From Cyanophora paradoxa CCMP329 (Eukaryota > Plantae > Glaucophyta), in the NCBI GenBank assembly GCA_004431415.1, contig QPMI01000098.1:116890-180889 (forward strand): a stretch of DNA of 64,000 bases. Reading direction: 5' to 3'. The notes below the pieces were generated by a model that saw only the letters and a list, made by a program, of their open reading frames with translations, was not told the origin of the DNA and made no database searches. This document shows, piece by piece, positions 7,813 through 64,000 of this stretch; the first letter of the stretch is position 1, and each line of letters begins with the position of its first letter. Made by a program: the position numbers and the translations under genes.

Positions 7813-8170
7813 TATTATTTATCTTATTGTTATCAGTCTGAGACTCTATGAAAATCGATTGACCTTAGTGTGAAACAGTGCGCCCCGCCCACTATGCAAG
7901 ATACATGCAAACTACATGCGAGTTCCATGAAAAACTATAACGATTAAGTCATGTATATATTTCGTATATATGTCCGAACCTCCGTGATAGTGATCCCGCG
8001 CAACTTTCGTTTTTGTTTTTCTTTTTTTTCTCATATCACGACATATACATATATATATCGGCGTCACCGACATATTCGGGGTCATCACATCGCGGCGATT
8101 CCGAAAACATATAGCATGCCACAAAGTAGTATTTTATGTTTTTGTTGTGGTATTCGACCAATCACAAGCC

Positions 8171-14400: not shown

Positions 14401-14700
14401 TTCATCCGCCTTATAGCTATACCAGGCGTATGCTTTATTCATTGCGAAACCGTCGTCCTCATCGGGTTCTATGACGGCTAAGCGCCGCCCTTCGGTATAG
14501 AAGCGCTCCACATTTTCCAGGCGATTGTAAAGCTCGTCGGCAATATTCGCAAGGTTAGCTAAGCGGGGTTTTCGATCTAAGATCGCCGCCCTCCGATCGT
14601 ATTCGGCTTCGGTGATCTCCCCAGTGACTAAAAGACTACCTAACAAGCCTAATATTTCGTCCTTTTTCTCTTTTATAAGGCGATTAGTTTGGCGGGGCAT
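11437..14700 (-). CDS. polB: Polinton-type (protein-primed family) B DNA polymerase with putative OTU-like, C2H2 and endonuclease VII-like domains
   Basis: Polymerase motifs LLDANNLYG, FKLMNNAIYGK, HDTDSF, GKYKNE, GLRPKLYA; CETCLSRFRSQEKLDSH; CYIC...VRDHCHQSGDYIGKACRKCN. Confidence 0.93.
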   Translation of the reverse strand: MPRQTNRLIKEKKDEILGLLGSLLVTGEITEAEYDRRAAILDRKPRLANLANIADELYNRLENVERFYTEGRRLAVIEPDEDDGFAMNKAYAWYSYKADEQIILDPVEFLTTIAANLPGRLKERLDELKAIKVRLTFICRYVKVSDPNVFITKHIYSDYFVITRSRNILTELVGVAQQMNEQMIQVDSYRLSKLDKLHVAVLSYAPMGGCYIETPEWIGLKRATVNIKNIDGHDCFNYAILAWLHRNDINRHKRNDPFQYRRWLTELDFSGITFPVACDAQIIDRFEDNNPELSINIYGADNATQTFYPLHMSSNPRRKSKVNLLLIEDANGQGHYITIMSLSRLLKTTFDKANDGRIFYCETCLSRFRSQEKLDSHTDSNRCIDWRLSKGKCPEPGSFITFGLQHLRKMVWLPTVCYCKVEMESVPVPNEPNRTKREVKSVALNVVMGSHVENHEFEGVDPLGQMFTTLGDLCREMLNTLFTNTPMIPLTEAQKQAYKLTKHCYICNQRFTHENFPVRDHCHQSGDYIGKACRKCNLHRRISKQTKVAVVIDRMDECGHALFRKIAQQDDKLRVEILSKNFDEYLSLQWGLYKFIDASNFMDFQASDVNDLMVKFGKFSMLAHEQYGLDPTHYVSAPGLSWDAMLKHTRVAIEQISDADQYEFIERAIRGGFATMPTRYAEANSEDKHIVLLDANNLYGYALSQPLPVGDYRWDDTSTAFTEVVGRSAFIEVDLAYPDYLKGDHRDFPLIVSKEVITVDMLGKYQRGLLEISGEKLSKDPKLIASFTPKYNYVVSQPMLLYMVKKGIVVTKIHRVLSFATAAFMKPYIDLNTKLRKEARNKFESDFFKLMNNAIYGKCLESCRGRSVVKIANSTKLFKKYAASPLVKATNVLNETAVAFEMYSKHVKLDKPVAIGAYVLDAAKLHNYSFFYDVIRPTFSQAQLLFHDTDSFCLYIESADLEAGMRAISPYLDCPNSPENRMVPGKYKNEMPDVKIVEYVGLRPKLYAFRTESYDKVKMSGTASKEVHFDDFKRCLFDGITKTVTVVNKQRRCHHLYDLESKRIALTQFDGKRCISGDGIHSLPFGC

Positions 14701-15440: not shown

Positions 15441-15710
15441 TAAACTACTTAATTAATATAATAAACTACATGAAACTACTTGACTTTCCTTGAAACACTA
15501 CGCAACTTGAAACCAAAACTACGCAATTAATACCAAAACTACGCAACTACGCAACTTTTGCGCTTTTCAGAATTTTTGCCGCCCCGAATCTCAAACCTTT
15601 TGCAGAAAGTTGCGTAGTTGCGTAGTTTTGGTATTAAATGCGTAGTTTCCAGTATTAAATTGCGTAGCTTCGCTATGTAGTTGCGTAGTTACTAAAAAAT
15701 GATGTAGTTA
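15441..15710. repeat. Internal copy of the ACTACGCA palindromic cassette directly after the helicase stop codon (putative origin)
   Basis: ACCAAAACTACGCAACTACGCAACTT...CCGCCCCGAA...AAGTTGCGTAGTTGCGTAGTTTTGGT, closely matching about 33340-33590 of the TIR. Confidence 0.85.
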
Positions 15711-15729: not shown

Positions 15730-18144
15730 TTATGCTTCAATATCGTCCTCATCTTCGTCTTCGAACTGTGTCTTGGCGATCTTAGTGAGCCCCTTATAAA
15801 CTCGCTTCGACTTCCCTTTAATTGTAGTCACAGTCGATTCAATCTTGAATGTTTCGAGCACTTTGTTACTGATAGTGCGAGTGGTAACCTTTGTCTTGAT
15901 ATCGTAGCTTCGCATCATTTCCGCGCAAGCTTTGAATACCTCATCGCAGGCAACATGGGCGCCCTTCTCATCTGATGGTTTGTAGTTTTCGCGCAGATAG
16001 GAACCCAGCTTATCGCTGTCGTCGAGATATTTGGCGCTATGCTCGATGACAGATTGCGGCGGGTTTTGCAGGATCTCTTTTACTTTGCCAGTAGCGAGCA
16101 TATCGATGAGAATCTGAATATTTGCCCGCTTGTATTCATTTTTCTCGTCGCCCTCAAACATTTCCATGAGAGTTTCGTCCGCTTTCTTCTCTCCGGCTTT
16201 GGGATTAGGTGAGTAAACAGAGCGGAATGGGATCGATCTGAACCGACGCTTAATAGCTTTGTCGGGCTTTTCGATTTCCAGATTATTGTTGCACAGGATC
16301 ACCATAGTAAACCGAGGCTTGAAATCAATAGGATCCTTGAAAAGTCCTCGGGCTGTGCAGAGCTCGCCACCTGTCAGTGTCTTCATCATACCGCATAGAA
16401 GCTTGTCGCCATCATTAGGCTCGTTTGCATGGGTAAGCCGGACACCTTGCTTATTAGCAAGCTCGGGAATCGGGCTATTTGCTTTGTGGACTTGTGTGAG
16501 CAAAGTAATGCTAATCGGGCGAGCATAATCACCGAATGTCTCTTGCATAAACGTTTCAATCACACTCTTTCCATTAGCACCGACACCTGTGAATAGATAG
16601 AACGTTTGCAGGTCGGTTTTACCTGTGAGTGCATATGCATAGAGGCTGATCAGGTAATTGTAGAGTTCCATATCTCCGCCACAGATATCCAAATAAATGT
16701 CTTTCAGTCTTTTAACCTTTGCCTCATCAACTTCCTCGCAGTAATCAAAGCCGACAGTCTTGCTCACCATATCTTCCGTCGTCCCCTTGCGGAAAGTCAT
16801 ATTATTTAAATCAAACACGCCATTAGTAAACCCCACAATATTGGGAACTGTGTCCAGAGTCGCCATAAAGTCATCGTCTTGCAGCTGTGTGATAATATGC
16901 GGTTCCAGTGACTTTTGATACGGTGTATTCTGAATCCTCTTATGAATTGCCAGCAACATGTTGGCGCTCTTCTCAGCTTTTTCCTTCACAAGATCATCTC
17001 CACTTGCCCTGAGAGCATTGGAAAGATGATAGCCCGCCCTCTTAGAGAACCACTGTGCCACATGCTCGGGGATCTTAGAAAGTAGCGACTTCTCCGTTTT
17101 ATCATATTTCCAAATACCATTTTCGGGGTTCAGGTTAAACCAGACCTTATTTGAATATTTCGTGGTCGCTTTCAGGATCTTGGCGCAGATGATTGCAACA
17201 GGATAATGGGCACCTTCAACTGAAACGGTCTTGTCAATGAGAGTATTAATTTCTAAATGGTGCTTCTCTTCCTCGGTCAGCTCTATGTTAACCGAGAACT
17301 CTTTCGGCTCGCAGTTCTCGCTATAACTCTTCACAATATACTCGTTATACTTGCCATCTCGCTTTTTCTTCACCCACCAGTTATTGGAATCGTGGGATTC
17401 ATCGCAGCAGGGACACAGGAACCCCTTGTTAGCCGAATTAAAGTCAAAGCCCTCATCGCGGCGTGCATAGATGTTTGGGAATAGGAACCCCATCCCACAC
17501 AGCCCGGTAATAATAGCAGCTTCGGTATTATCCTTGCTCGAATTTCCCGCTTTCGGCTGTGGATTATTGGCATGCTTGTAATCGTAGTTCTCGATAATCC
17601 ATTTACGGAAAGCGTCGGAGGGCTCATTAAACTTGCACGACGATGCCCACGGCTTAATTACCCAGGTCTTATTAGGGCTTGGGCATACATTGAGAAGTCC
17701 CGCAGTGCCAGTGCCAGTGATGGTTTTGAGGTCGACCTTCTTGTATCCCTTAAAAGCCGGCGCGCTATCTGTGATTTTCAGCTTATCGAACTCATCAGGG
17801 CGTCGAAAGAATACATGGTAGCCCTTACGAGTCTTTTCGAGTGGCTGATGGGCATCGAAATCATCGGGAAACATCTCAACGAATTTCTGATAGGTTTCCT
17901 CATCGTCGAAATCGACGACCATCATCGAATTCGACAGCAGAATGCCCCAATTAGTGAACTGATTGGACTTAAAGGCTTCGTCGTATCGTTCCCAGTTCCA
18001 AACACCGCCTTTATGGGTGTAGGCGGGCTTTTTAACCTCGTCTTTCATGGGAATAATCGTGTTTTTCGACAAGGTCTCATCGCCACGCAGCCAGTCAGCG
18101 AGCTCTTGGAGTAAAGTCTTTTGTTTCAACGTCATCTTTGCCAT
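15730..18144 (-). CDS. Primase-polymerase (AEP/Prim-Pol) fused to a D5-like superfamily 3 helicase
   Basis: N-terminal NWGIL...VVDFD...TRKGYHVFF; Zn-binding CPCC..H..C; D5_N FTNGVFDL; Walker A GVGANGKS, Walker B-like ANEP, motif C ILCNN, AIKRR; likely ATG at 18144. Confidence 0.92.
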   Translation of the reverse strand: MAKMTLKQKTLLQELADWLRGDETLSKNTIIPMKDEVKKPAYTHKGGVWNWERYDEAFKSNQFTNWGILLSNSMMVVDFDDEETYQKFVEMFPDDFDAHQPLEKTRKGYHVFFRRPDEFDKLKITDSAPAFKGYKKVDLKTITGTGTAGLLNVCPSPNKTWVIKPWASSCKFNEPSDAFRKWIIENYDYKHANNPQPKAGNSSKDNTEAAIITGLCGMGFLFPNIYARRDEGFDFNSANKGFLCPCCDESHDSNNWWVKKKRDGKYNEYIVKSYSENCEPKEFSVNIELTEEEKHHLEINTLIDKTVSVEGAHYPVAIICAKILKATTKYSNKVWFNLNPENGIWKYDKTEKSLLSKIPEHVAQWFSKRAGYHLSNALRASGDDLVKEKAEKSANMLLAIHKRIQNTPYQKSLEPHIITQLQDDDFMATLDTVPNIVGFTNGVFDLNNMTFRKGTTEDMVSKTVGFDYCEEVDEAKVKRLKDIYLDICGGDMELYNYLISLYAYALTGKTDLQTFYLFTGVGANGKSVIETFMQETFGDYARPISITLLTQVHKANSPIPELANKQGVRLTHANEPNDGDKLLCGMMKTLTGGELCTARGLFKDPIDFKPRFTMVILCNNNLEIEKPDKAIKRRFRSIPFRSVYSPNPKAGEKKADETLMEMFEGDEKNEYKRANIQILIDMLATGKVKEILQNPPQSVIEHSAKYLDDSDKLGSYLRENYKPSDEKGAHVACDEVFKACAEMMRSYDIKTKVTTRTISNKVLETFKIESTVTTIKGKSKRVYKGLTKIAKTQFEDEDEDDIEA

Positions 18145-20008: not shown

Positions 20009-20920
20009 TCAAAATTTACCCAATTTCTTTGCAAATTTTGGGCGGCGCTTTTCTTGGTATGCCAGCAATAGATTGGGGTCTTTAAGTAGGTCGGCTTCGA
20101 TTATTCGTTTGGTGGATCGCTTTAAGGTTGCGACGTTTCCACTCACAGGCTTCGTAATATCGGTGGTTTGGGGTTGGTCACCATTTACCGCGCCCGACGT
20201 CGGTTTTACCGGCTGTTTACCAGCGGTCTTTATGTCGTCCGCCGCTTTTTTAAAGAAGCGCTTGAATTTATATTCGTCGGGCACCGGATCAGCCTTGCCA
20301 ACAGAGAATTCCAGGCTATATTTCGCATTGTTTACCACGATCACCTGATAGCTGTGACTGTATTCGGTCATCACCTTCTCGAACCACCGCTTTTCGTATG
20401 GATTAAACTCGTCCTCGGCGCTCTCCATCTCCTTTCTATTCGGCAATGAGAACAGGAATATATATTCGGCGTTTACTCTGAGTGTCGGCGAGATCTTCGT
20501 GAGTTTCTGTGACAAAATCCACACGGACACAAACAGATGGCGTCCAGCCGTGAAAAGACGATTTAATATAGGCTCACCCTTTCCTGACATCGATAGACTC
20601 GGATTATCAATAAAATCGTCCAGCACAATTAACAGGTTACCGACTTTCTCATTTTTCTTGATCCTCTCCTTGCGTTTCTCTATTATATTGTCGATCAGCT
20701 TATGGTCGAAATCCTCATACAGATACGATGTGACATTGTCGTATTGATGATTCCAGATCGTGGAGGCGAATATCATCACCGAATCTATCTTGTCCTCATT
20801 GTGGTAAAGCAGGTATTTCAAAAACACTGACTTCCCAGTTGCTGTTTTGCCCACAAAAACGGCTCGATTTGGGAAATCCAGGCTTCCCGGGTCAAACTCA
20901 CTCAGATCTTGTATATCCAT
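20009..20920 (-). CDS. A32-like (FtsK/HerA) DNA packaging ATPase
   Basis: Walker A VFVGKTATGKS, Walker B LIVLDD, GRH..VSVWILSQ, R.NAEY; likely ATG at 20920. Confidence 0.95.
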   Translation of the reverse strand: MDIQDLSEFDPGSLDFPNRAVFVGKTATGKSVFLKYLLYHNEDKIDSVMIFASTIWNHQYDNVTSYLYEDFDHKLIDNIIEKRKERIKKNEKVGNLLIVLDDFIDNPSLSMSGKGEPILNRLFTAGRHLFVSVWILSQKLTKISPTLRVNAEYIFLFSLPNRKEMESAEDEFNPYEKRWFEKVMTEYSHSYQVIVVNNAKYSLEFSVGKADPVPDEYKFKRFFKKAADDIKTAGKQPVKPTSGAVNGDQPQTTDITKPVSGNVATLKRSTKRIIEADLLKDPNLLLAYQEKRRPKFAKKLGKF

Positions 20921-20971
20921 TTCCCTTATAAGAAACATATAAAAATTACGAAACGCCACAGCCCTCATTCC

Positions 20972-22420
20972 TCATGCCGATATTCTACTGAGACCGTTGG
21001 CATTCATTACAAGGATATTGTGGCAGTAAGCCGAAATCTGAACACTGACCTTCGACCAGGTGGCGAGGGGTGTGCCATTGGGTGTGAGGATTAGGAAGCT
21101 CGACGCTGATTGCGTTAGATCGACGTAGCCAGTCGCCTTCTCACCTTTGAGCGCCGCTTTACCATCGAGAGCAAAGCAGAAGCCAGTGTAAATGGGGCGC
21201 TTGTTGCTATCGATCCAGTTAGTCATCTTGAATTTATCGGCGAGCTCCATAGCCGCGGATTGCAGCGGGACACCAGTGTTGGAATATAGGTAATTGTTGT
21301 TATTTAGAACTTGCATCACGACATTATCATCGAACGCAAGGGTGCGGACAGTAGAGTGCCCTCCTTTATTATCGCCGAGTGTGTTTTCGTCGCGAACCTT
21401 GACAACAAGTGCGTAAACAAGTCCCGAAATTTGAGATAGTGACAGGCGGAGACCAGAGCCGAGAGCAAGACCGGTATAATCCGCAAACTGAATATCAGTG
21501 TAGGGGATGGCGATGCCAGAGGTCTTAACACGAGTAATGATTTCGCCCATCGTTTCCTCATCGATGTTAACAGCATCCATAATAATACGAGGGGTCGTCA
21601 TTTCCAGATTCGCAAGAGCAGGTGTAGGTGTGAGAGCCGCACTATCGAAAATCGCAGTGGCATTAGGGTGAGCTAAGGTCTTAATATTTCCGAAAGCAGC
21701 CGCAACAGCAAGCGTCGTCTCGCCATCAGTAGAATTGGCAGCAGTAATTGCAGTCGTGTTATTCTGAGCGTAAACGCCAGGAACCGCCGCAGTTTCGAGC
21801 AGCGCAGGGGTTTGGAAATATACTTCGACCGCGATTTCGGATGGGAGCGCACCGATGGGCACGCCAGCATCGAGGAAGCTCGGAATTCGCATGGTAAAAA
21901 TGCCGCCAGCTTGGTTGCCGCCCTCTACCTTCGGTCCGAGATGTAGCCCATGCTTGCGCTTCTTTTGCTCGAATTCAGCCGGAGAGTTAGCGAGGAAGGC
22001 GTAATCTACCAGTCGCTCAGCGGGAATAATTTGCTCATACGACCCGTATTTAATGCTGACTCGCTGAACAAACGATCCAGGAAGCCCGCGGACGAATCCA
22101 GTATTGAATAGATCAGCCGAGCAGTCAGCAGAGGTCTTGGCGATGGCAGTCAGCGCCTTCGCCGATGGAATGGTAACTTGGAGGCTAATACCATTGCACC
22201 AATTGTAGCGAGGGAGATAGAAGACCACACGAGTGGTAGCACCAGTAGAGGAGAACAGATTGCCGGGATCCGCAATTGGGAGCACCTCAACACGAGAAGG
22301 CTTGAATTGTTTATCAACGCCCACAATAAATCCGCGATCCAAAAGCATGCTCTTGTAATCCTCCGGGGTTTCCAGGACGGATTTGAGCGTGAGGCGGGAA
22401 AGCGAGGTCGTGGGATCCAT
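20972..22420 (-). CDS. Major capsid protein (double jelly-roll, PLV type)
   Basis: 482 aa and beta-rich; lies between the ATPase and pentons; FVQRVSIKYG..EQII, IPSFL..GVPIGAL..I.VEVYF and C-terminal ISAYCHNILVM fit the DJR-MCP pattern. Confidence 0.78.
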   Translation of the reverse strand: MDPTTSLSRLTLKSVLETPEDYKSMLLDRGFIVGVDKQFKPSRVEVLPIADPGNLFSSTGATTRVVFYLPRYNWCNGISLQVTIPSAKALTAIAKTSADCSADLFNTGFVRGLPGSFVQRVSIKYGSYEQIIPAERLVDYAFLANSPAEFEQKKRKHGLHLGPKVEGGNQAGGIFTMRIPSFLDAGVPIGALPSEIAVEVYFQTPALLETAAVPGVYAQNNTTAITAANSTDGETTLAVAAAFGNIKTLAHPNATAIFDSAALTPTPALANLEMTTPRIIMDAVNIDEETMGEIITRVKTSGIAIPYTDIQFADYTGLALGSGLRLSLSQISGLVYALVVKVRDENTLGDNKGGHSTVRTLAFDDNVVMQVLNNNNYLYSNTGVPLQSAAMELADKFKMTNWIDSNKRPIYTGFCFALDGKAALKGEKATGYVDLTQSASSFLILTPNGTPLATWSKVSVQISAYCHNILVMNANGLSRISA

Positions 22421-32798: not shown

Positions 32799-34273
32799 GC
32801 ATGTATCTTGCATAGTGGGCGGGGCGCACTGTTTCACACTAAGGTCAATCGATTTTCATAGAGTCTCAGACTGATAACAATAAGATAAATAATAAACTAC
32901 TTTATAATTAATTAAAACTACTTTAAACTACTCAACTACCTATGTTAAACTACGCAACTTAATACCGCAAACTACGCATTTAATACCAAAACTACGCAAC
33001 TACGCAAGTTTTTCACTTCTCTAATTTTTTTCCCCCCCTACTCTCAAATTTTTTCAGAAAGTTGCGTAGTTGCGTAGTTTTGGTATTAAATGCGTAGTTT
33101 TCGGTATTAAAAGCGATCAGATTGCGTAGTTTTCATGCGTAGTTACGTTAAATTGCGTAGTCTCCGATTGCCCGCATGCTTCTCAGTGCGAGACTATTGT
33201 GTAGCCTATAAAACTGTTGTGTTTCAGTGCGAAACGATTGCGTAGCTTCCCTTTGTAGCATGCCGGCGCTCTTTTCAGTAGAGAAAGCATGGTATATATC
33301 ATAGAATCATATTGATATTAATAAGAAACAACTTTATAATATATAAACTACTTTAAACTACTCAACTTTCCCTGAAAAACTACGCAATTCGAAACCAAAA
33401 CTACGCAAATGAAACCAAAACTACGCAACTACGCAAGTTTTACACTTTTCTAAATTTTTCCCGCCCCGAATTTCAAACGTTTTCAAAAAGTTGCGTAGTT
33501 GCGTAGTTTTGGTATCTTTTCAGTAGTTCCCGGTATTAAATTGCGTAGTTTCTTTGAGTAGTTGCGATAGATTGCGTAGTTTCCTATGAGTAGCCGATCG
33601 ATCTCGATGCGAAACTCATACATTTACGTTGCGCACAGTCCGCCGCACAGTGCGCCGCACACTCTCGATGCGCGCGACATGTTTCATACAGCACATGATA
33701 ATTGTTTACGTTGTTACAGGTGTTACAGGTCTTGCCCAAACTCGGGAACCAAGACCCCCTCCTAGGGCAAAGTTTGGGATGAACCTGTAACACCTGTAAC
33801 ACTGAATAAGACCAATTAAAATACAAAACAATCAATCATAATATATCATAGATCTACTTTGTTTTATAGAGAGCCGCATGCAGAACGTTCCATGCAGCTC
33901 ATGGTAGTTGTTTATGATGAAACGGCGCGTGATCGTCGCTTTTATATTGAAAATTCAGAACAAACACACATATACAACTCCCGGCTTTTAGACTGAGGCA
34001 AGTTATAATTAAACTAAGTTGAGTCACACCTCTAATATAATAAAACTCACGAGATATATAAGTCTACTCATCGAGAATATACATAAAGATCAAAGAAACT
34101 ATACATATTTCACATATTTTATTAAAAAGAAGCTATAACCCACGATAAAATAAATACAAATCACCGATAAAACACACACATATTCACGATAGATATATTA
34201 TAAATACAGGTTATATACTAACGAGATCAATTTAAATAAGCCGAGGTCTAAAAGCCGGGAGTTGTATATGTGT
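32799..34273 (-). repeat. Right terminal inverted repeat (1475 bp)
   Basis: Reverse complement of 6433-7908. Confidence 0.95.
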
Positions 34274-34390
34274 CGCATCTCGGACCCATCCTACGCGCCC
34301 TGCGGCGGCGTGAAGGTTCGCGAAGGCTGCACCTCAATACGGCAAGGAAACACGTTCCGCCATGATTATGATGATGATGATGATCAATAA
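34274..34390 (+). CDS. Severed 3' end of the host RING/beta-helix gene (begins with the right TSD CGCATC)
   Basis: Joined across the TSD it reads GNTIERI-SDPSYAPCGGVKVREGCTSIRQGNTFRHDYDDDDDQ*, in frame. Confidence 0.8.
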   Translation, partial: RISDPSYAPCGGVKVREGCTSIRQGNTFRHDYDDDDDQ

Positions 34391-51371: not shown

Positions 51372-51444
51372 ACACATATGAATATTCATATTTTAATCCC
51401 TCGGCGTTCCGCCTCAGGATTAAAATATGAATATTCATATGTGT
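51372..51444. other. Terminal hairpin of element 2: 28-bp perfect stem with CTCGGC-GTTCC-GCCTCA head
   Basis: ACACATATGAATATTCATATTTTAATCC (51372-51399) pairs with GGATTAAAATATGAATATTCATATGTGT (51417-51444). Confidence 0.92.
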
Positions 51445-51829
51445 GATTCGATGTTATATCAATAAAATCGATTAATTTATTTGAATTTTCACATGAATTT
51501 TCATATTTTTAAATGCATTTTCAATTAATTTAATCGATTTTATATCGATAAACTCGATTAATCGATATTGTATCTTAATTGTAGTTAATCGGAATTATAT
51601 CTATAACTTCGATTAATCTTAATTGAATCCTAAATGAATCTAATCGGAATTATATCAATAAATTCGATTAAATCATGTTCTTTTCCGATTAAATCAATTA
51701 AATATTTAAGTTTGTTACCATAAGTGGTCTAAGTTGACTCACTTTTCATAAACAATTTGAACTCTTAGTCTCCTTGAATTTCTTAAGATGACTCAACTTA
51801 GTCAACTTAGTCAACTTTGTTACCATAAT

Positions 51830-52550
51830 CAATCAGGGTGGACTCACTTTTAGATCAACTTTGAAATTTCAAGCAAAATCAACTTATATTTCAAAAGTGG
51901 ATCTTCTAAGTGGACTCATAATGTTCACTTTGTGATACATTTAAGTTCTAATGCTTACTGTATATGGTCAGGGTTGACTAAGTGGGGGGAGTTGACACAT
52001 TTTTCAAAATCTTTTATAGAATATTCTTTGGATCTCAAAATTTCCTCTGAAATTTGAGTCAACTCAACCCACTTAGTCAACCTTAGCATTGAAATGGTCA
52101 CATTTTTATATACATTTACTCCTTTTACGATTAATATGAATCAACCATGAGTCCACTTAGTATTAAATATTAATCAATGTAAATATAAACAAGGGATTAA
52201 GAGGAATGCTTATTGAATATGGTCAGGGTGGACTCACTTTTTTATACAAATCGAATTCCCAAGTAAATTTGACTCTAAACTGTTAGGTGGATCTTCTAAG
52301 TGGACTCAATATGTTCACTTTGTGATACTTGTTAGCTCAAATCCTTACTGTTTATGGTCAGGGTTGACTAAGTGGGGGGAGTTGACACATTTTTTCAAAT
52401 CCTTTTTAGAAAACTTTAGGTCCCAAATATTTCCTGTGAAATTTGAGTCAACTCAACCCACTTAGTCAACCCTTGCATTGAATTCGTAACAAAATCCATA
52501 TACTTTTACTACTTTTACGATTAATATGAGTCAACCTTGAGTCCACTTTA
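51830..52550. repeat. Two tandem (390-bp offset) palindromic GTTGAC/GTCAAC iteron-like cassettes
   Basis: GGTTGACTAAGTGGG..GAGTTGAC, A/T spacer, GTCAACTC..CCCACTTAGTCAACC at about 51971 and 52361. Confidence 0.82.
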
Positions 52551-52671
52551 ATATAAATATTATATAATAGGGGGAATCAAGGGGAATGTTGAGTTTTACT
52601 GTAATGAAATCGAACATTATTCCAATTACTTACAATAGAATTCTATCGTAAAAAATGTCCGGAATCCGGAA

Positions 52672-52747
52672 AATAATCATTGTATAAAGCTACTGTAGTG
52701 AAAGGATATATTATATCTTTTTGTTACAGTAGCTTATCAATGTTATT
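52672..52747. terminator. Long AT-rich hairpin just downstream of the AdoMetDC gene
   Basis: AAGCTACTGTA (52687-52697) / TACAGTAGCTT (52725-52735), with inner GATATA/TATATC and outer CATTG/CAATG. Confidence 0.5.
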
Positions 52748-52792
52748 GTTAGAAAACAAAGGAATCCTTTAGAAATTCATTATAGAAACCCA

Positions 52793-53191
52793 TCAAAACG
52801 GGAATCTATCATGTTTATGTCTCTCAGTCTTCTCAAATGTTAAGAAATTCATTGTTTTATCGATCTCATCTGCTACTGATTGTGTTTTATGCTGAGCTTC
52901 TTTACCACAACTGAATATATCAATTGCTAACATGCCTTCATTGGAATAACAATGAGCTGTGCAATGGCTTTCATCTAATAGCAGAACCAATGCAAAACCA
53001 GGAGGTGATAGTTTGCCATCAAATATCTCACAGTGTTTATGAACAATCCTAATACCTTGTCTCAATATTGCTTGTTCAAGGGTTCCCATAATCCAATTAC
53101 CTAGGAAGCTAACATGCTCATGACCTGTTGCTATAGCTGATTTAGCTTTGTAATCAAGCATAACATGAAAGCCTCTGTATTTAGTCTCCAT
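52793..53191 (-). CDS. speD: Prokaryotic-type pyruvoyl-dependent S-adenosylmethionine decarboxylase-family proenzyme
   Basis: GFHVMLDY, PPGFALVLLLDESHCTAHCY (ES self-cleavage site), IDIFSCG; 132 aa. Confidence 0.85.
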   Translation of the reverse strand: METKYRGFHVMLDYKAKSAIATGHEHVSFLGNWIMGTLEQAILRQGIRIVHKHCEIFDGKLSPPGFALVLLLDESHCTAHCYSNEGMLAIDIFSCGKEAQHKTQSVADEIDKTMNFLTFEKTERHKHDRFPF

Positions 53192-53220
53192 TAAGAATAC
53201 CTTAGAAAAATTAATTAATC

Positions 53221-53493
53221 CTAATCGAACCTAATGCAAATGTCCCTGTACTCTACTTTGATTGATGAAGTAGCCCTTTTCCTGTAAGCCTGAGAGTGCT
53301 TTTTGTTGCATTCCCTACACCCTGATCCCTTCACATGATTAAAGGGATAGGTTAGGATCACCTTGTTACACTGCAAACATCTAACAGATACTTTCTCTTG
53401 AGCTTTGATGTAATGTGTCTCACTGTAATCGAATTTATCTTTACCATGAACTGTCATAGCAGCATCAATAAACTTTTTTGTTTTAGTATCCAT
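53221..53493 (-). CDS. DUF723-like zinc-ribbon protein
   Basis: KFI..A..VHG..FDYS...Y......V.V.C..C.......P.NH.KGSGC.EC. Confidence 0.75.
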   Translation of the reverse strand: MDTKTKKFIDAAMTVHGKDKFDYSETHYIKAQEKVSVRCLQCNKVILTYPFNHVKGSGCRECNKKHSQAYRKRATSSIKVEYRDICIRFD

Positions 53494-53515
53494 ACTCTAT
53501 ATATAACCAACATTC

Positions 53516-54349
53516 TTATGGAGCAGTATCCTGCCCGAAAATGGGGAAATATCGATTTGTCCCATAGTATTCAGCATAGGTATTCTGCTTTGCAATAAAA
53601 TCGGTTCTCTCAGCATATAATACACACTTGTAGATACCAAACTTGGTGGCTCTAACCAGGAACTGATAATCTTCCAAACCAAAATTGACTCCATGATAAG
53701 CAATTCCGAAATTATCATATGGGGTGATCACAACAGCAAAATTAGGAGTTCCACCCTCTACTTGACAAAGAGCATATACATCTGGTGGGATATCCACAAC
53801 AACCTTGTAGTGGTCACCAATCTCAACAAGGGAGTCTACTACTGCTGTTTGTTCATTTACAACAATGGGGAATATTTTGATTATATAGGGGGCATTCATG
53901 CTGGGGACATAGGTTCGAATTCTTGTGTTGGGATCAATGGGATTGGGTTGATCATTCACAAATAAAGGCGCTCCAACAGCCCCACCAACCCTAAGACCAT
54001 CACCAATATAAGCTCCCCCCGATTTGCAGTTAATAGCTCCCGACCTAGATTCAAAAGAATAAGTAGACAGAGGATCTCCATAGCTATCTGGGTCTCCATA
54101 ATGAGCAGAAAAGTTTGCATTTGTGACAAGTAGCTTAGTTGTCTTAACTATACCATTATTTTTATCACATCTGAGTTCCTGTAATCTCAGTTTGTGGGTG
54201 GAACCAAAGGTGTTCATTGTAGGTTGGACCTCTGTTGATTGGAGACCCTCTACATCATCAAAGGTAGCATGCTGCAGAACATGGTTTGCTGGGGCAGCTA
54301 ATGATAGCTGTGGTGTAATAATTCGTTCAAGTGGGGGTTGCTCAGCCAT
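53516..54349 (-). CDS. Viral structural/fibre-associated hypothetical protein (277 aa)
   Basis: Intact ORF; paralogue of 54373-55216; GAINCKSGGAYIGDGLRVGG beta-repeat. Confidence 0.65.
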   Translation of the reverse strand: MAEQPPLERIITPQLSLAAPANHVLQHATFDDVEGLQSTEVQPTMNTFGSTHKLRLQELRCDKNNGIVKTTKLLVTNANFSAHYGDPDSYGDPLSTYSFESRSGAINCKSGGAYIGDGLRVGGAVGAPLFVNDQPNPIDPNTRIRTYVPSMNAPYIIKIFPIVVNEQTAVVDSLVEIGDHYKVVVDIPPDVYALCQVEGGTPNFAVVITPYDNFGIAYHGVNFGLEDYQFLVRATKFGIYKCVLYAERTDFIAKQNTYAEYYGTNRYFPIFGQDTAP

Positions 54350-54372
54350 TTTACATTAAAGGGATATATCTT

Positions 54373-55216
54373 TTATGGGGTTGGGTCATCAATAATATCT
54401 GGCTCCATGTAAAACCCTGTAACTGAAAGAGTATCAGGAGTTACACCTCTAAGAGCTGATACAGCGGCTATATCTGTTCTCAAACCGATAAGAGTTATAG
54501 TATATAACCCAATATCTGTAACAAACAAGTCAAAGGTGAAATTATTATTATAAACACAGTAGCCATAACCGAAATGATTATATCCCTGAACATTGAAATA
54601 GTATTTATGACCTACTTGATTGTTGTTGGCTCTACAAAGGGAAAGCATTGCAGATGGAATCGCAAGACCTCTCAGTACTCTTTTGGTTCCTTCAATTAAT
54701 TCCGAGTTTTCAAGAGTAACAGTATATCCAATGTAAAATTGAATTAATGGCTGCTGTGCGACAGGAGTATATAATCGAATTCGTTGGGGTCTTCCACATT
54801 TTGCTCTAGAGTATCTGGGACATCATTATACGAAATGGAGGATGAGAGTTGACCTGACACTCTGCAACCACCCCAATAAATGCTCCTCCTGATCTCACAG
54901 TAACAGCAGCAGTATTCTTGTCGAAATCTAGGGCTTTCAGGGCAACACTGTAAGCATCAGGACCTCCATTTGTAGGCTGGAAGAAGTTAGCATTGGTGAC
55001 AAGAAGTCGAGTTGTTTTAACCACACCAGAATTCTTATCAGCTCTCAGCTCTTTAACTCGAATAATCGAATTCTTATCAAAGGAGTTACCATTGGAATTG
55101 GGTCTCTCTGTGGATTCTAAACCACGAACCTCATCATTAACTTCATGCTGGCGAAAATGCATTGCAGGGGATCCAAGGGAATATATTGGAAGTTGAACTC
55201 GATTATATTCACCCAT
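54373..55216 (-). pseudogene. Frameshifted paralogue of 53516-54349
   Basis: ELRADKNSGVVKTTRLLVTNANF vs ELRCDKNNGIVKTTKLLVTNANF; split into the 54806-55216 and 54373-54648 ORFs. Confidence 0.6.
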
Positions 55217-55255
55217 GGCTTCTTTTACTAAGAAGGAAAGAAAAATAAACTACCA

Positions 55256-55561
55256 TCAAGCCAAAGTGATTAAATTCGATCCAAGGGATTGGTAAACAGT
55301 TGAAAGAACTTGCAGGTTGGATGTCATTGCTTTAATGTTGTTATCACACTCATTGTATTTAGCAACAGGGTCACCATATGCAGCTTGAGCAAGGACATTA
55401 ACCAAGAGGTTTTTATACTCATTTACAACTGGTGAGAGCTTGTTAGTTTGCTGAATCGTTTTTTCAACTGTTTGTAATGCGTTTACAAGGGTGATTGTAT
55501 CAAAAGAAAGTGCAACAGGCTCAGTAGAATAGGTGGTTCCACCAAGAGGATAGGTCGCCAT
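55256..55561 (-). CDS. Viral hypothetical helical protein (101 aa)
   Basis: ATG directly abuts the stop of the upstream fibre gene. Confidence 0.6.
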   Translation of the reverse strand: MATYPLGGTTYSTEPVALSFDTITLVNALQTVEKTIQQTNKLSPVVNEYKNLLVNVLAQAAYGDPVAKYNECDNNIKAMTSNLQVLSTVYQSLGSNLITLA

Positions 55562-58500
55562 TTATAATACTGTGATATTTTTAATTTGGTCTATTTGACT
55601 TTGGAGATTCTCACAGGTTTGTGTTAAATCTTTGCATTTTTGGGATAACTCCTTCACTGCTTCAATGAGAACCGGAATTAAACCTGTGTATGCAAGGGTC
55701 AAATAATTTTCGTGATTTTTACCTACTACTTCTGGTATGACTTTTTCGACATCTTGCGCAATCAAACCTAAGTTTACTTTCTGTTTTCCATCACCAATCT
55801 TTTTGTAACTCACACCCTGTAATTTCTCAATTGCTGAAAGGGCGCCGGTTATATTTTTAATGTCGGTTTTGTATCTTCTATCACTTCCTTGTGTAAGCCA
55901 TCCCAAAAGTAAACGTCACCATTATTATAAAAAGCTTGCATTGTTATATCATTTCCTGCTCTAAAATGGATCATTTCGTAACCATAACCTTTAATGTATG
56001 TAGTTGATGATGAACCGAAATAAACTCTCCCATTACCTTCATCTGATGTTATCCAAGTTCCGGTTGCCCAAGTTGTGCGAGCATCTTTACTATATACATT
56101 ATCCCAGCTGATCATACCATTTGCTGGTGAGGTTCTCCCTTTTTCTTTCGTCCATCCAACCATACCAATATAACATCTCCCTTTTCTTGCAACAAATCTA
56201 ACATGTGAGAAATAATCACAAGCAAAAGAAGCCCACGCCAACCATCGTGATAATCTGTGGTTCCATAATTTGAGACAGTCTGATAAGTATTAACTCGCAT
56301 AATGTGGAACCATCTACCCGATCGATAACCTCCAATATCGAAATATCGACAATTCGACCAACACAAATATTGGACATGACATGTTTGCATATTTGCTGGG
56401 ACTTCAATTTGCGCCCAATCACCACTTGTCGAATCACCTTCAACAATACTATAAAATCCATCGACGGATTAGAATAAGAAGCTGTCCAACCTGACACCCA
56501 AGATCCACTAAATGATAGACCACCACTACCTGTTCCACTCCAAGTATCAAAACCTGTAATATTTCCAACTAAATTCGTTGTTAGTAGATTTGGCTTACTA
56601 TAAATGTTATCCAAGAAACATAACCTGTGTGACCACCATAACTACTTCCTGTCCAAGTGCGAGTAAATCCAATGCCCATTATGTAAACTCTTCCTACCTT
56701 TGGAATAATACGAAGGCGAATAAAGCGATTTCCCAACATAATAGGGACATTTTGTAAACCATTGTGGTTTCCATCTGGTGCGCTTTCATATTGATGATAA
56801 CTATTCACTCTTGCAATGAAAACCGCATTTCCTTGTCTATTAATTCCCCAAATCTCAAAGTAACGACAATTTACCCAAGGGAGATATAATAAGTGGGCTG
56901 TTCCCGTATATAATCAGTGGGTATTGTGTAATCAACCATGAGCGTTTACAACTGTGTCGCCACTCTCATTATTGTAAGCATACCCACCGTAATTGTAATA
57001 GGGTTCCCATGCTGTTCACCTTCAAACCCCAACCTCCTGCATAACCATGTGGCGAATTTCCTGCAACTGATGCATCATATTCTACACATCGAGGCATTGT
57101 TTTGTCGCCAAATTTATAGTTTGTAGTTGCATTTATTGAACCCCATTAATAATTGTTCCACTTATAGTCGGAGCGGATACAGTATTATTCACCCAAAGGT
57201 TGCCGTTTTCATAAGATTTTAATAATGCTGCATCCCCTGAGTTTCTGAATTCGATGCAAACGCTGTCACTATTGGTCTACCTCGAATATATGTAGTGCTG
57301 GCGTTTCCAAAATAAAACCGCTCATAGTTGTCAGTTGATTTAAGCCATGTCTGGACAGCCCATGTTGCTGTTTGTGGGAGGTCTGCGGCTGTAAATAAAG
57401 CGGGACGACTGTAAATATTATCCCAACTAATCAAACCATTCGCTGGTGCTGTTCTTCCTACTTCTTTTGTCCATCCAAGCATTCCAATGTGAATTCGTCC
57501 TTTCTTTGCAAAAATTCCAATATGAGAGAAATTCCCACAAAATACGGAAGTCCATAATAAACTCGAATGCCAATTTGTGTCGGCTGTGTTTTGAACATTT
57601 TGATACGTATTCACTCTCATAATATAATTCCAACGACCATTGCGGTATCCATAAATATCAAAATATCTTGAATTCGTCCAACATAAGTATTGTATGTGAC
57701 AGGTTTTCATTCCTGCTGGAACAACACACTGCATGTAGCCACTGCCACTTTCATCATCTGTCTGGTTGCAATAAAAACCCTCTACTGGGTTATCTGTTGT
57801 GGGTTTCCATGCTGTTGTCCAAGCCCCAGCTGGGAATGCTACACCTGTGCTATTCCAACCACTTACAACATCAAACTCGGAATATTTGCCAACAGGATTG
57901 AAAGCAATATTATCGTAATGCAATAATCCTGCATCATTATCAGTTGCTCTTTGTCGACTCCAACCAAAGACACCTGTAAGATAAATGCGACCTTTTCGCC
58001 CTTGAACATATATTTTACTGTAAAATTCGCAGTTTACTGAAGTAAATATTATAGCTGGGTATGTTCCATCTTGAACTGCAACATCCTGAAGTCCTTGATA
58101 GTTATTTATTCGTCTTAGGAAATGTTGATGTCCATTTACAGTTTGCCCGTAAATATCGAAATATCGACAAGTATGCCACAGTAAAGTTGAATATAAAACG
58201 ATTTCATACCTTCTGGAACTGTCCAACGCATAAAACAACCATTACAATCTTCATCATTTTGTGGTATTGTATAACATCCTGTTTGTCCTGTTCTTTGTCC
58301 TGTCCAATTGACTGTCCAATTATTTGCGCTTCTATCTGTTGATACTACATCTAACTGATCAAAATCATAACCTTTTGGAATTGTGGTTCCACCAATTTGT
58401 AGAGTGGTAGCATTCACAGTTCCATTGACAGTCCCACCTGTAAGAGGCAAATAGTTTGCAAGAGCTGTTGTTAACTCTGCATCTGTTGCATAACTGCTTA

Positions 58501-61500
58501 AATCTGCAGAGGTAAGATAACCTTTATTGGTAAGGTAATCATCTGTGACCACTCCTGAAAGGGTTGTATTGTGTAAGTTTTTTGCTGCCATCCTCTGATT
58601 GACTTCTAAGGCGCCACCTGATGTTGTTTTAATCCAGGACATCTCACATTTACCATGATCATCTGTGGGTTGTCCTGCAACTGGAAGGTAGTTTACAACT
58701 TTCTCCTTGTAAACACGATTTTAGGTCTTGCTCCATCATATGGGTCTTGATCTGTTACATTAACTTGAATTGCTGCTGAAAAATTGGCTACTTGTCCTGT
58801 TTCTCCTGGGTGATAATTCGTTACATAGATACTTGGGAAAGTATCATTAACTCCCACATTAAAATCGCCATCATAAACTCCATTAACAATTGGATCCCTG
58901 GGTAATCTTACTGCAAGAGTTCCCACCATTGGGGTTCCTGTTTGACCTGTAAAAGTCCATTGAGACTAACATAATGATCATTCAAAAATAGCCTTTCAGT
59001 GTATTACTGGATTGGTAAAGTGTAACTCCATTGAAAACATTTCCAATCGCATTCAACAGTGCAAATACTGGTTGTTGATCGATTTCACTCCAAGGGTGTC
59101 TGTGATTGCAGTTGGTGATCTGGGAATAATCATGACTGTGTGGATCAGGTGGAAAAGTTAATGGTGGATTTACGATTTGCTCCCATAAATGCCCATGGGA
59201 ACTGGGAGGAATGTTAATGGTGGATTTGTTATATGCTCCATAAATGCTCATGTGCAAAATCTGTTATTTCATCTTTTGTGTGGGTGTGGTTGTCGATCCA
59301 ACCTAAAACTACATTGGATGTAGGATGATTTGGTAGATTTGCTGCAATATTCACAGTCAAATAGTCGACTTCTAGATTACTTCCGTAAATATTGCTTGCC
59401 CATAGATTACTGGTGTAAATGTTACTTGTATAAAGGTTACTGGTGAAAATGTTACTTGTGACTGTAAGGTTTGTGTCATTTTTGATCACAAAAAGAGAAA
59501 GAATGTTTGTTAATTCACCTTCATCAATATATCCTTGCTCTTCTAAATAATCCTCTGTGACCACTCTCGAAATAGTCTCATTGTGAATATTCTTTGCAGC
59601 CATCCTCTGATTGGCTTCCAGAACCCACCATAGTTTGTTTTAATCCATGCAAGCTCTGCCCTTCCATAGTTATCATTTGCAGTTCCCACTATGGGAATAT
59701 AGGAATATTTATCTCGACTGAAAACTATCATTGGTCTTGATCCATCTAGACTGCTTACATCTGCTACATGAACCTGTATAGCAGAGTTGTAATTTTGGTA
59801 GGTTGCTGGGTCTGTTGGGACTCTGAATGTATCTGTGGGAATGTCAGCCTCCATGTAGCTTGACACAAAGATATTTGGTATGGTTGCTCCTGGTTCAGGT
59901 GGTGGATTATAAGAGCCTGGTAATGTCCTAATATGAAGTGGTCCTCTCATAGCTGAATTCGCAAGTGTCCCATTCACATGAACATAGTGGTGATTCAAAA
60001 AGATCCTTTCAGGGACATTGCAAGTCTGGTAAAGAGAAACTCCCAGAGTAGCAAGAGGCTCAACTTTTGCAAATTCTGGTTGGTCATTGATCTCATCCCA
60101 GGTGTGTTCATGGTTGCTTGCTGCAAACTTATCTGGAATCCCATCAATATCACCCCAATCATGCCTGTGGTCTTCTGGTGGGTATTTCTGTGGTTTGCCT
60201 AAGATCTCATCCCAGTCATGATTGTGGTCCTCTGGAGGATATCTCGCTGGTTTATTGTTTATTTGCTCCCAGTCAGGGAAGATCTCGAAAACCTCAGGTT
60301 GCAAACCATCTGGTAACAGTTCCTCATGGGGTCATGGGTTGCTCATAGTCAACAGCTGGGGGATCATGACCATCTGCTAAATACTCCTCATGTGGTTCAT
60401 AATTCTGCTCATACTCATACTCTTGTGGATCATGTCCATCTGCTAAATACTCCTCATGGGTTCATAGTTCTGCTCATACTCATACTCTTGTGGGTCTAAG
60501 CCATCTGGTAATATTTCCTCCTCATTGGGTCATATTGATCATATTCATACTCTTGTGGTCGAAACCATCTGGTAAATACTCTTCCTCATCTGGAACGAAT
60601 TGATATTCATCAAGCTCTAATATATCGACTTCAGGAGGTAAATACTGCTCATCTATTTGCTTTCTGGTTCAATTATAGGTTTATTGCGAACTTGCTCCAA
60701 CTCACAATATGCTGCCCAAAGGCTACATTTCAGTTGCTGTGTATTCTCTTCCAGGCTGCTTCTTTGGTGTTAGATCGGGTGTCCATTGGAAATGGAATAG
60801 GGAATGGACAGTAGGTCCATTGGGACCATAATGCTCAATGATTTCCCTTAGAGTTTTCTCACTAACAAGCTTCTCTCCATTTGCATACACATTGCTGCCA
60901 TGGATATTTCGCCATTGCCTGGTTCGAATTCCAAGGTCTTTCACATTGCTATACAAGGCAAAAGGTGCCTATCCATTTCGACTAAATCAGGATGCAATGG
61001 ATTGCTACTGGTGACTGGGGCTACTGTTGATTGTAATTGATGGCTTTTTTTGATGGACATCTTTTGGAGTAAAGAACCCAAAAGGCTCATTTCTTGCAAA
61101 GTCATATGTAATATCCTTGGGTAGACATCATTGTGTAGAGACCTGATTGTATTGGCAATGGGACCCACTTGCAATACTTGGGGACTCAGCTTTTGCAGTG
61201 CTGCCCTCATTGTAAATTCGTAAAGCTGTGTTCTGTTTGCCCTGCTCATCTTGAACATTGAAAATCAATCGACCACTATCGAACCTGAAGGTATATCTGG
61301 GTGAGTGCCACTGGTTTTCAGTTTCCTAGGTCTCTTCTGGTGGCTTTGATCTCTGCCACTTGGTTTGCTTTCACATTACCCAAACTAAAAGCAACACTGA
61401 CATCCTCTTTATCTGGATCGGTTTGATTCACAGATAAAGCATGCTCCCTTGATTGAGTCTTTGATGAATTATCAGAGCTGTGGTCAATTGAAACTGAACC

Positions 61501-61591
61501 CTTTACTTTATATTATCAAAGTTCACATGCTTGGTGCTGCTTGCATTATCATCTGAATGGTTTCTAGATTGGGTGGGTAATTGAAGCTCAT
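55562..61591 (-). pseudogene. Large fibre gene(s), multiply frameshifted, with a C-terminal peptidase S74 intramolecular chaperone
   Basis: SDRRYKTDI..GLIAQDVEKVIPEVV..LAYTGLIPVLIEAVKEL; fragments match the element 1 fibre (EHTWDEIN.QPEF.KVEP, NQRMAAKNLHN.TLSGVVTDDYL, VPAGMKTC); the frameshifts may be assembly errors; may be more than one gene. Confidence 0.75.
60310..60592 (-). repeat. ~66-bp coding tandem repeat (HEEYLADGHDPQEYEYEQNYEP-like), 4-5 copies
   Basis: Recurrent CCATCTGCTAAATACTCCTCAT / TCATACTCTTGTGG. Confidence 0.8.
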
Positions 61592-61634
61592 GGCTTTTAC
61601 TATATGGATTTATAAAATTCCTGATAAGTAAAAG

Positions 61635-63184
61635 ATGCCTCTCAAAGTAGTTCTCAGTTTGTCAGGGGGAGGTGCAAGGGGCATTATCATAACCAGGCTG
61701 CTCAAAGAAATCGAAAATCGAACTGGCAGGAGAATAATCGATCTTGTGATCTTGTGAGTGGAACTTCCACTGGTGGATCATTGCTATTGGGTTAAACATC
61801 AGGCATCCTGATAAACCAGGTGAACCTAAACTGACAGCAAACGATTTACACAATATTTACCTAACTCAACTGCCCTTGATTTTCGCAAATCCTCGAAATA
61901 TCATTGAAAATGCCCTATTTAACACAAAGTATGATGTGGGACCCTTGGAGACTGCAATCAATTCAGTTACTGGTGAATCACTAATACAGGATTCCCTTAA
62001 GGACATTGTGATCACATCCTTTGATACTCAGAATATGAAACCAATATTTATCACAAATGACAACAATTACAACTTTATGCCTTGTAAGATTGCTGCTAGG
62101 GCTACTTCTGCTGCTCCTACATATTTCTCTCCTGTAAGCATTGTTGATTTCAATCGGGAGTATATGTCTGTCTTATTGATGGTGCCATTTCGGGAAACAA
62201 TAATCCCAGTGTGTGTGGTTACAGCCATGCAAAGAAGATTTACAGTGATGATGATGATATTATAGTAATAAGCATCTCTTGTGGTGAGGTAGACCCACAT
62301 TTAGAGTCTGATTATGTGGGTTATGCTTATGAGACTGTAAACAGCTGGGTATTCTCTCATGGATTGCCTCAACAGATGGAAGCCCATTGATTAACATGCT
62401 CATGGCTGCAAGTGAGCTTTCTGCCCTTGATAAAATGAGGAGCTTTTACCCTACAACTATGATCAGGATTATGGAGATACTATAGGTTATCAGTCCCTCT
62501 TCCAAATCATATAGTAAGCTCCCTGGATGACACATCTAAGATCCCAGACATGCTTGCATTCACTGAAACATACATTGCAGCAAACAATGATATGATCAAT
62601 AAGCTTTGCAGCCTTCTAGTAGCAAACTATGAAACTAAAGAACCCTTCAAAGGCTTACATTTCATCCACTCTCACTACATCACCTCCTTGGATGCCAATT
62701 GGTATCAGCTTGCAGATGATGCCTTTACTGCTCATCCTCTGTGACAGGTAAAGAGCCTTTCATGGCTAGACCTTCAGCATTTGCTGGGAAGCTGGAGCCT
62801 ATGCTCCTGAACAGATATGGGAAACCCCCATGAATACCTTCAAGTTGCTTTTCCATATACTTTTGAACTCTCCTCTGTGATTGCCTATGGATCAGGGACA
62901 CCAATGCTTTTATTAAGACTTTCAATGTGGCAACATCCACTGATGGATCAACTGGTCTTTATTCGATCAGATGGGCAAAACAAAATTATGTCTGTGAGAA
63001 CATTAACAATGCTCACAACTCTGGTGATGTGGCTCTATTGAGTGGGTTCCCTCTCAGCATCAAGGATCTTTTACATAGGTTATTCTCTGAGAATAAGATA
63101 TATTCGCATTATCCCCTTGTGTATGTGAATGCTCCCACAATGAGATTGACTTTACAGGTGCCTTTATTCGATAAACTCAACTGA
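61635..63184 (+). pseudogene. Patatin-like phospholipase (frameshifted), possibly with a C-terminal discoidin-like domain
   Basis: MPLKVVLSLSGGGARGII, SGTSTGG, ATSAAPTYF and IDGA...NNP in successive frames; YLQVAFPYTFELSSVIAYG downstream; end approximate. Confidence 0.8.
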
Positions 63185-64000
63185 AAAGAATTATCGATTC
63201 CATTCATATCAATCAGTTCACCAAGTAATCTTTAAACTCCACAGTGAGTTCCCTTATCACCAGGTTTCTGTCATTGATTTGAATAAATTCTGCTTTCACC
63301 ACTATGGTAAACATAGCCCCCTATATCTTTACTCAATTGCAATCTAAGGATAGCTCCCTGGTTTGTGGTTGCGATTTGGAATTATATTGTGTCTGCTGGC
63401 AAAGGGGACAGCTCTTTAATATGCATGTACAGATACTGCTCAGCATTCATATCAGACATCTTCCTGCTGTCAAAATAATATTGCAAGGGCTTAGAGGAGA
63501 GTCTGGGTCCTGAGAAGGTGATTCCCCATGCTGGGTGATCAGGTGTAATAGGTTTGCCATCATACTTTAAAAGGTTCTCAGGTCGATAGGGAGATCCACC
63601 AACAGGAGGAGTGCTATAATACCCAGTGGTGTATTCAGTAGAACTACACCCAAAAGCTTCCCTATTCTCTGGTTGCTTGCAATAAAACGAAACTCATGGT
63701 TACTGTAAAACTCCACTTTATAGGTTGTTGGTTGTAGAATATCTTGAACTCAAAAGCTACTGTTTTGCCTGCAATAGTTTGGAAGCTTGAATAGTTCAGC
63801 CCATAATTATAATGTGTTGACCCCAAAATGACCCTGATTGATGTAGCCACTGGAAGGGGATACACTTGTTGTGTGATTCACTTGTTATATGAACCATCTT
63901 GGTAATTAAACTGAACTGTTAGATGATCAGTTCCCACACTGTTATAGATACTGTTTGGAATCTCTGCATAGAAACCCTACATTCCCTTGGTCTCTCTACT
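63150..64000 (-). pseudogene. Minor capsid (penton) gene, C-terminal part, frameshifted and cut by the window edge
   Basis: The minus strand reads YLYMHIKEL, ELTVEFKD and ELIDMNGIDNSFQL, matching penton 2 of element 1 (YVYLQIKEF, LTIKWLD, VNFNGVNHSF). Confidence 0.7.

Follow-up and report, generated by a model that had tools for sequence, protein, structure and literature searches.

Two AT-rich elements in GC-rich host DNA

The window, the whole 64-kb stretch analysed here, contains two AT-rich inserts in surrounding DNA of 70-80% GC, and the host ORFs within it have no Pfam match. The first insert, element 1, is a Polinton-type element with an RVE integrase, a pPolB, a primase-helicase, an ATPase and capsid genes between 1.5-kb TIRs flanked by a 6-bp TSD. 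The second, element 2, extends past the window edge, and its right end lies outside the window.

6433-34273: element 1, a complete 27.8-kb Polinton-type element, recognised by TIRs, TSD and gene content
6427-6432 and 34274-34279: TSD of element 1, CGCATC, 6 bp
6433-7908 and 32799-34273: TIRs of element 1, about 1476 bp, with one indel between them
6905-7760 (6905-6995 and 7127-7760), also 32799-33800: iteron-like inverted repeat arrays inside the TIR
8911-10353, minus strand: RVE integrase, 480 aa, with D126, D188 and E224 in D-35-E spacing; weak Pfam rve match (E 0.014)
11437-14700, minus strand: pPolB, 1087 aa; Pfam DNA_pol_B_2 (7e-12), polymerase motifs intact
15461-15690: further copy of the iteron-like array, directly beside the primase-helicase gene
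15730-18144, minus strand: primase-polymerase/D5-like helicase, 804 aa; Pfam D5_N (8e-8), DUF5906 and Prim-Pol
20009-22420, minus strand: region with evidence of an A32 ATPase (Pox_A32, 1e-9) and, by atlas features, a capsid
51372-64000: element 2, left part only; AT-rich, with frameshifted fibre genes and a minor-capsid-like gene

Among the characters that define Polintons and PLVs, element 1 has a protein-primed family B polymerase, an RVE integrase with a 6-bp TSD, TIRs of several hundred bp or more, and an A32 ATPase with a weakly recognised capsid. Recognition of the capsid is sub-threshold and comes from atlas features (0.98) shared with clusters in which 30% of members have Capsid_N and 19% have Capsid_NCLDV; the protein is likely of the double jelly-roll type, and no sequence homolog of it was found. 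Two ORFs without a Pfam match for this role can be read as minor-capsid-like, in addition to fibres. Pfam detected no Ulp1-like maturation protease among the ORFs of element 1, several of which are unassigned. The element begins AC at its ends, whereas Polinton ends usually begin AG. Public homologs are sparse, with one for the integrase (63%) and one for the full-length pPolB (46%), and the family is rare in public data. Many variant contigs, with a period of 113-138 nt, match the host DNA to the left of element 1 (6100-6290), and the element therefore adjoins a repetitive host gene family.

The iteron-like arrays consist of tandem 8-9-mers placed as inverted arms around a spacer of A/T and G runs. 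Such arrays act as origins for P4-alpha/D5-type enzymes, and those in the TIRs are candidate internal origins. An array in element 2, at about 51900-52480, is analogous to them and different in sequence.

A structure model of the pPolB (mean pLDDT 83) has the phi29 polymerase as its best fold match (E 2e-16). In the model, residues from about 117 to 203 form an alpha/beta domain whose last strand is preceded by a loop holding Ser188. By comparison of text, this domain appears to match the D1/TP-like topology described in the available part of PMC11161782, and the modelled Cys235/His335 pair would fit a vOTU. An HNH/EndoVII-like insert at about 497-538 is common to 17 of 17 aligned pPolBs; Pfam Endonuclease_7 matches the protein at E 4e-4, under the curated cutoff, and a PDB search with the insert returned weak zinc-finger matches only. 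Exonuclease motifs are degenerate in this pPolB and in its closest relative (P0001), which, together with the separate SF3-type helicase, is in line with the pattern of exonuclease loss and helicase gain in PMC11161782, as far as its available part extends. Element 1 thus resembles pPolB2 Polintons/Mavericks, as portrayed in the accessible portions of 10.1101/2023.08.22.554363 and PMC11161782, in its TP-like and vOTU-like domains, HNH insert, RVE integrase, ATPase, capsids, TIRs and 6-bp TSD. It differs from them in its degenerate exonuclease motifs, an extra primase-helicase, the lack of a recognised protease gene and a terminal fold-back. A pPolB-bearing viral contig (L049) begins with a long imperfect fold-back of 525 nt (1-525) with a 63-bp perfect core, which may represent either a hairpin end or an artefact of assembly.

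Element 2 is a degraded relative of element 1, to which frameshift-broken fibre and minor-capsid matches within the window appear to tie it. A Peptidase_S74 intramolecular chaperone (Pfam 8e-18) closes the element 2 fibre region (55562-60400, minus strand), where fibre segments are duplicated with many frameshifts, yet the terminal hairpin is perfect. Unusual cargo includes an S-adenosylmethionine decarboxylase-like gene (52793-53191, minus strand; Pfam 5e-11) and a frameshifted patatin-like phospholipase (about 61750-62744, plus strand; Pfam 3e-4, under cutoff). A 14-nt word from the element 1 hairpin head (6680-6693) recurs in the subterminal repeats of element 2 (51789-51802), which suggests that the two elements may share TIR ancestry beyond the hairpin.

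Anatomy of the terminal fold-back

Three ends lie within the window, and each carries the fold-back:

6433-6740, plus strand: left fold-back of element 1, outer arm 6433-6460, inner arm 6713-6740
6461-6466 (CTC-GGC) and 6707-6712 (GCC-TCA): inside of the left stem of element 1, around a 240-nt head at 6467-6706 (25% GC)
33966-34273, plus strand: right fold-back of element 1, arms 33966-33993 and 34246-34273, same as the left in inverse orientation
51372-51399, plus strand: outer (terminal) 28-nt arm of element 2, with a 16-bp internal palindrome at 51376-51391
51400-51416, minus strand: mismatch, clamp and loop of element 2; the 3'-end strand reads TGA, GGCG, GAA loop, CGCC, GAG
51417-51444, plus strand: inner arm of element 2, perfect inverse of the outer arm

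A sequence-only reading of this DNA had proposed a terminal fold-back common to both elements, and this proposal is confirmed: 28 of 28 pairs followed by CTCGGC...GCCTCA are present at 3/3 ends, in the same register and orientation. Since both element 1 ends belong to a single TIR, the three ends amount to two independent examples. The fold-back spans 308 nt in element 1 and 73 nt in element 2. It is real and non-random. The motif ACACATAT occurs 8 times against 0.91 expected, and stems reached at most 15 bp in 200 order-2 Markov mimics of the TIR. None of 200 shuffles folded as well as the element 2 end (z about -13), and none of 100 did so for the element 1 end (z -7).

In element 1 the stem starts at the terminal base, which is the TSD junction. 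The TSD CGCATC fixes this boundary, as do further host flanks that join the element at 6431-6433 (see below), so that the proposed length of exactly 28 bp stands for element 1. For element 2 the same figure rests on a boundary set by analogy with element 1, because a flanking C, present at both left ends and absent at the right end of element 1, adds a 29th pair. The description of the stem middles as unrelated was too strong, as 16 of 28 ungapped arm positions are identical (by segment 8/8, 3/12 and 5/8). The arms of the two elements differ at 12 positions, each of which is mirrored on the opposite arm. Perfect pairing had been taken as selected covariation, but copying from arm to arm would yield the same picture, and pairing alone is therefore weak evidence of selection. 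The 16-bp palindrome inside the element 2 arm hints at such copying. The head of element 1 contains a nested third inverted copy of the terminal 8-mer (6523-6530 and 34176-34183, 98 nt from the end), possibly a relic or an alternative short fold.

The interior of the stem changes when it is read on the 3'-end strand. A 3-bp clamp and a 5-nt head had been assigned to element 2, where folding gives a 4-bp clamp and a 3-nt loop; on the 3'-end strand this loop, GAA, is a GNA triloop. The supposed unpaired bubble is probably a closed helix, not an opening: on the 3'-end strand TGAG lies opposite CGAG, giving T·G, G·A, A·G and G-C, in which a T·G wobble is followed by tandem G·A. Read on the 5'-end strand, the same positions are three unstable mismatches. 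The computed energies of the two strands, -30.8 vs -29.7 kcal/mol, leave a gap of about 1 kcal/mol. In a post-hoc test, a YGAR tandem on either strand arises in 8 of the 1728 3x3 loops that are fully mismatched and have the same closing pairs. NMR data show that tandem pyrimidine-GA-purine blocks make sheared G·A pairs (PMC10085684, in the part available); that block closes with C:G, whereas the mismatch here has T·G on one side. By analogy, the fold-back mismatch may adopt sheared G·A geometry, and the 3'-end strand is predicted to form a stable hairpin closed by tandem G·A pairs.

Short-read support, sister copies and further ends

Short-read contigs support the end of element 1. In 4/4 runs a junction contig agrees with 6215-6460 without a single difference. 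In two runs, each has four to five further host flanks that meet the element at 6431-6433, and this variety of flanks indicates a multi-copy family. The inner arm is crossed unbroken by contigs in X2 (6567-6760), X17 (6482-6760) and X8 (6691-6756). The possibility that the fold-back is a sequencing artefact, checked for element 1 only, is rejected, since these contigs confirm both the junction and the inner arm. No strand-changing joint is listed among the element 1 contigs of two runs. With the inner-arm contigs unbroken and such a joint absent, no inverted head is visible in the assembled contigs, which omit rare variants, and this is what TP priming predicts.

Sister copies mostly carry C, not A, at inner-arm position 6727 in 4/4 runs (834/1020 of the depth in X1 and all counted depth in X2, X8 and X17). 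No compensating row is listed for the partner base, 6446, a site too close to contig ends for reading, and the family stem may therefore be imperfect. One contig starts at 6447, for which a variant at 6446 or at 6477 could account. Inner-arm contigs have about 11-24x the depth of the junction contig, a depth ratio that is no copy number; the scarcity of junction contigs relative to family depth would fit an outer-arm difference in sister copies. Variable sites in the reads number 17 in the 240-nt head and 0 in 6707-6712, a difference that is not significant given 6 bases.

Searches for further ends covered viral, metagenome and GTDB collections, and no third end was found in any of them. A strict pattern had 0 matches in viral contigs and 0 in metagenomes. 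With a loose pattern, 0 of 91 metagenome matches had stem plus mismatch; GTDB yielded 53 loci (best partner match 18/28), none with stem plus mismatch, viral contigs yielded 24 loci (best partner match 17/28), likewise none with stem plus mismatch, and another loose viral pattern yielded 0. The motif is also absent from a cryptophyte PLV supplement. Four metagenome loci, L088 (27/28), L059 (24/28), L133 (23/28) and L116 (22/28), were rejected as further fold-back ends: in L088, L059 and L116 pairing continues past the motif within longer inverted repeats, and the L133 arm is identical to that of L059. Scans anchored on the integrase gave 0 viral loci. Those anchored on pPolB gave 32 distant loci, 3 of them with TIRs at the contig end, and the longest terminal fold-back was 10 bp. 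As 0/3 of these TIR-bearing relatives with the same pPolB type fold back at contig ends, which may be incomplete, TP priming would not need a fold-back.

Precedents and possible roles of the fold-back end

The earlier statement that this group has no known structured end is out of date. In Halocafeteria seosinensis, TSD-adjacent palindromes are described in virophage subtypes 1, 2, 5 and 6 as well as PLV subtype 4, and hairpin priming is proposed for them (bioRxiv 10.64898/2026.07.28.741278, July 2026; available text). Like the present fold-back, these palindromes lie inside the TIR beside the TSD of an RVE-integrated Polinton-related virus and have been given a role in end replication. Unlike them, in mostly non-pPolB elements, the fold-back of element 1 accompanies a pPolB, and a conserved mismatch, a fixed length and a strand assignment are found only in the present elements when compared with the accessible text of the preprint. 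The screen described there allowed a palindrome gap of at most 10 nt, and it would therefore have missed a 308-nt fold like that of element 1. Elsewhere, the string "palindrom" is absent from the main text of PMC8547959, PMC12220804 and PMC12721341, the hairpin passage in the available part of PMC12747079 concerns giant viruses, and bidnavirus ends form no parvovirus-like hairpins (PMC4061559). Within the literature searched, mostly outside subscription journals, no description of structured PLV ends was found besides the Halocafeteria preprint. The class of feature is thus already known; new relative to the available preprint text are a conserved mismatch of G·A type placed at a fixed distance, its assignment to one strand, the form with a long loop and the association with a TP-type pPolB.

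A second precedent is bacterial. The accessible portions of PMC4513846 and PMC5449611 describe Streptomyces 3' overhangs of about 300 nt that fold back, in which G:A-closed hairpins are Tap sites and the G:A-closed GNA loops are thought to be nuclease-resistant. The overhangs are repaired on a fold-back template, although repair did not use the long-range fold ("rabbit ears") as its template. As in these telomeres of TP-capped linear DNA, a terminal segment here finds its complement in an internal copy on the 3' strand; GNA loops closed by G:A and a span of up to about 300 nt are further likenesses, drawn on our side from sequence and prediction. Streptomyces differs in having seven palindromes in 180 nt, a 13-nt terminal palindrome, a Tap primase rather than a pPolB, and no integration. 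Element 1 has one fold-back rather than multiple packed palindromes, and no Tap/Tpg family member was found among its ORFs. The fold-back end may work like a Streptomyces telomere without being one, and no sequence homology is claimed.

The best explanation, to which we give a probability of about 0.4, is that the fold-back is a structured telomere that positions TP priming, keeps the 3' end protected and supplies the template for its repair. That some strand actually folds is rather probable when all readings are taken together, and the fold-back likely marks the 3' end and shields it during copying of the viral termini. TP priming uses the 3'-end strand as its template, and this strand is also the one joined by the integrase. 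In the proposed mechanism, this strand would first be exposed as a single strand, by strand displacement or by internal initiation of the primase-helicase at the TIR arrays. It would then snap back, tucking the 3' end into a duplex, and the G·A motif, 28 bp in from the terminus, would give the TP-pPolB complex, or a helper, its landmark, with synthesis starting at the terminal AC repeat. Finally, the inner arm could act as template for repair of an eroded 3' end, which would keep the arms identical while their sequence drifts between lineages. The whole would work much as a Streptomyces telomere does, inside a virus.

Several observations favour the structured telomere. The proposal of a structured signal measured from the end is supported, since the fold-back is in register with the terminus, and register and orientation are alike at 3/3 ends. 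The pPolB model shows the TP-like topology with a Ser placed in the linking loop, together with a Cys/His pair of vOTU-like type, and the single orientation and unbroken contigs fit TP priming better than simple hairpin transfer. On the other hand, no motif-binding protein has been identified, and the replication genes of element 2 lie outside the window.

A somewhat unlikely alternative is self-priming in the manner of parvoviruses, in which the 3' end snaps back and primes synthesis and the mismatch makes the duplex asymmetric, so that one arm is nicked. The fold does leave a 3'-OH paired and facing an internal template, which corresponds to model D of the Halocafeteria preprint (bioRxiv 10.64898/2026.07.28.741278, available text), and element 1 has an SF3-type helicase and the HNH/EndoVII-like pPolB insert. 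The left hairpins of MVM and LuIII also share with the present end a 3'-end fold-back, a single orientation and a purine mismatch: GA opposite GAA or GAG, with complementary CT/CTC in LuIII, is near the TGA/GAG found here (PMC1185569, available part). However, these are ssDNA viruses with an NS1 nickase. Their bubble is an asymmetric 2-vs-3-nt spacer whose sequence, in MVM, is unimportant, whereas the loop here is 3x3, sequence-conserved and set in a dsDNA element with a TP-type polymerase (same source and extent). No HUH/NS1-like nickase was detected by Pfam among the 13 main ORFs of element 1; the flip/flop heads expected from simple hairpin transfer are not seen, one orientation being present at 3/3 ends, and there is no asymmetric spacer bubble. 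Moreover, the pPolB retains its TP-like domain.

It is unlikely that the fold-back serves as an excision or integration signal, either as a cruciform with the host junction at its base, cut by the HNH/EndoVII-like domain of the pPolB, or as a refolded 3' strand that offers the integrase a TP-free 28-bp duplex. The exact start of the stem at the TSD junction would suit such a role, as would the sub-cutoff Endonuclease_7 match (E 4e-4). In the available text of PMC11161782, TP removal before integration is left unexplained, and in that of bioRxiv 10.64898/2026.07.28.741278, palindromes are tied to particular RVE integrases. Yet the insert is present in 17/17 aligned pPolBs, TIR-bearing relatives lack a fold-back at their contig ends, the insert resembles zinc fingers only weakly in the PDB, and a 240-nt head would make cruciform extrusion unlikely in duplex element 1.

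Quite improbable is a role without any fold in vivo, in which the terminus and the GC-rich hexamer 28 bp inward are two inverted duplex binding sites and gene conversion keeps the arms identical. The invariant parts are indeed short motifs (ACACATAT, CTCGGC and GCCTCA), a third inverted 8-mer lies in the element 1 head, and the MVM bubble acts as a duplex (PMC1185569, in its available part), but this leaves unexplained both the presence of G·A geometry together with a GNA loop on a single strand and the tolerance of a 73- vs a 308-nt span. Slightly less probable still is a neutral by-product, a template switch at GGC/GCC microhomology that recopied the terminal 28 nt with the common 12 nt inherited: the 16-bp palindrome of the element 2 arm is a mark of fold-back copying, and accidental annealing is offered as an alternative in the available text of bioRxiv 10.64898/2026.07.28.741278, but 12/12 bases inside the stem are conserved next to an unalignable head and arm middle.

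Open questions for Polintons, PLVs and mavirus-like virophages are the start of replication, the exit from the chromosome and the removal of the TP before integration; the last is stated as such in the available part of PMC11161782, and excision routes are listed merely as possibilities in PMC8547959. For the structured telomere, the element 2 end offers a natural 73-nt substrate with a strand-specific structural prediction, testable by oligonucleotides and purified proteins. The element 1 end suggests that short-gap palindrome screens would miss long-loop fold-backs of its kind. A broader proposal, in our judgement unlikely, is that this PLV lineage arrived by convergence at a G·A-stabilised 3' fold-back telomere like those of Streptomyces and parvoviruses, with the tandem G·A 28 bp in both setting TP priming and giving the integrase a TP-free duplex end. 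If true, a convergent telomere would answer how a protein-capped genome becomes a provirus and back.
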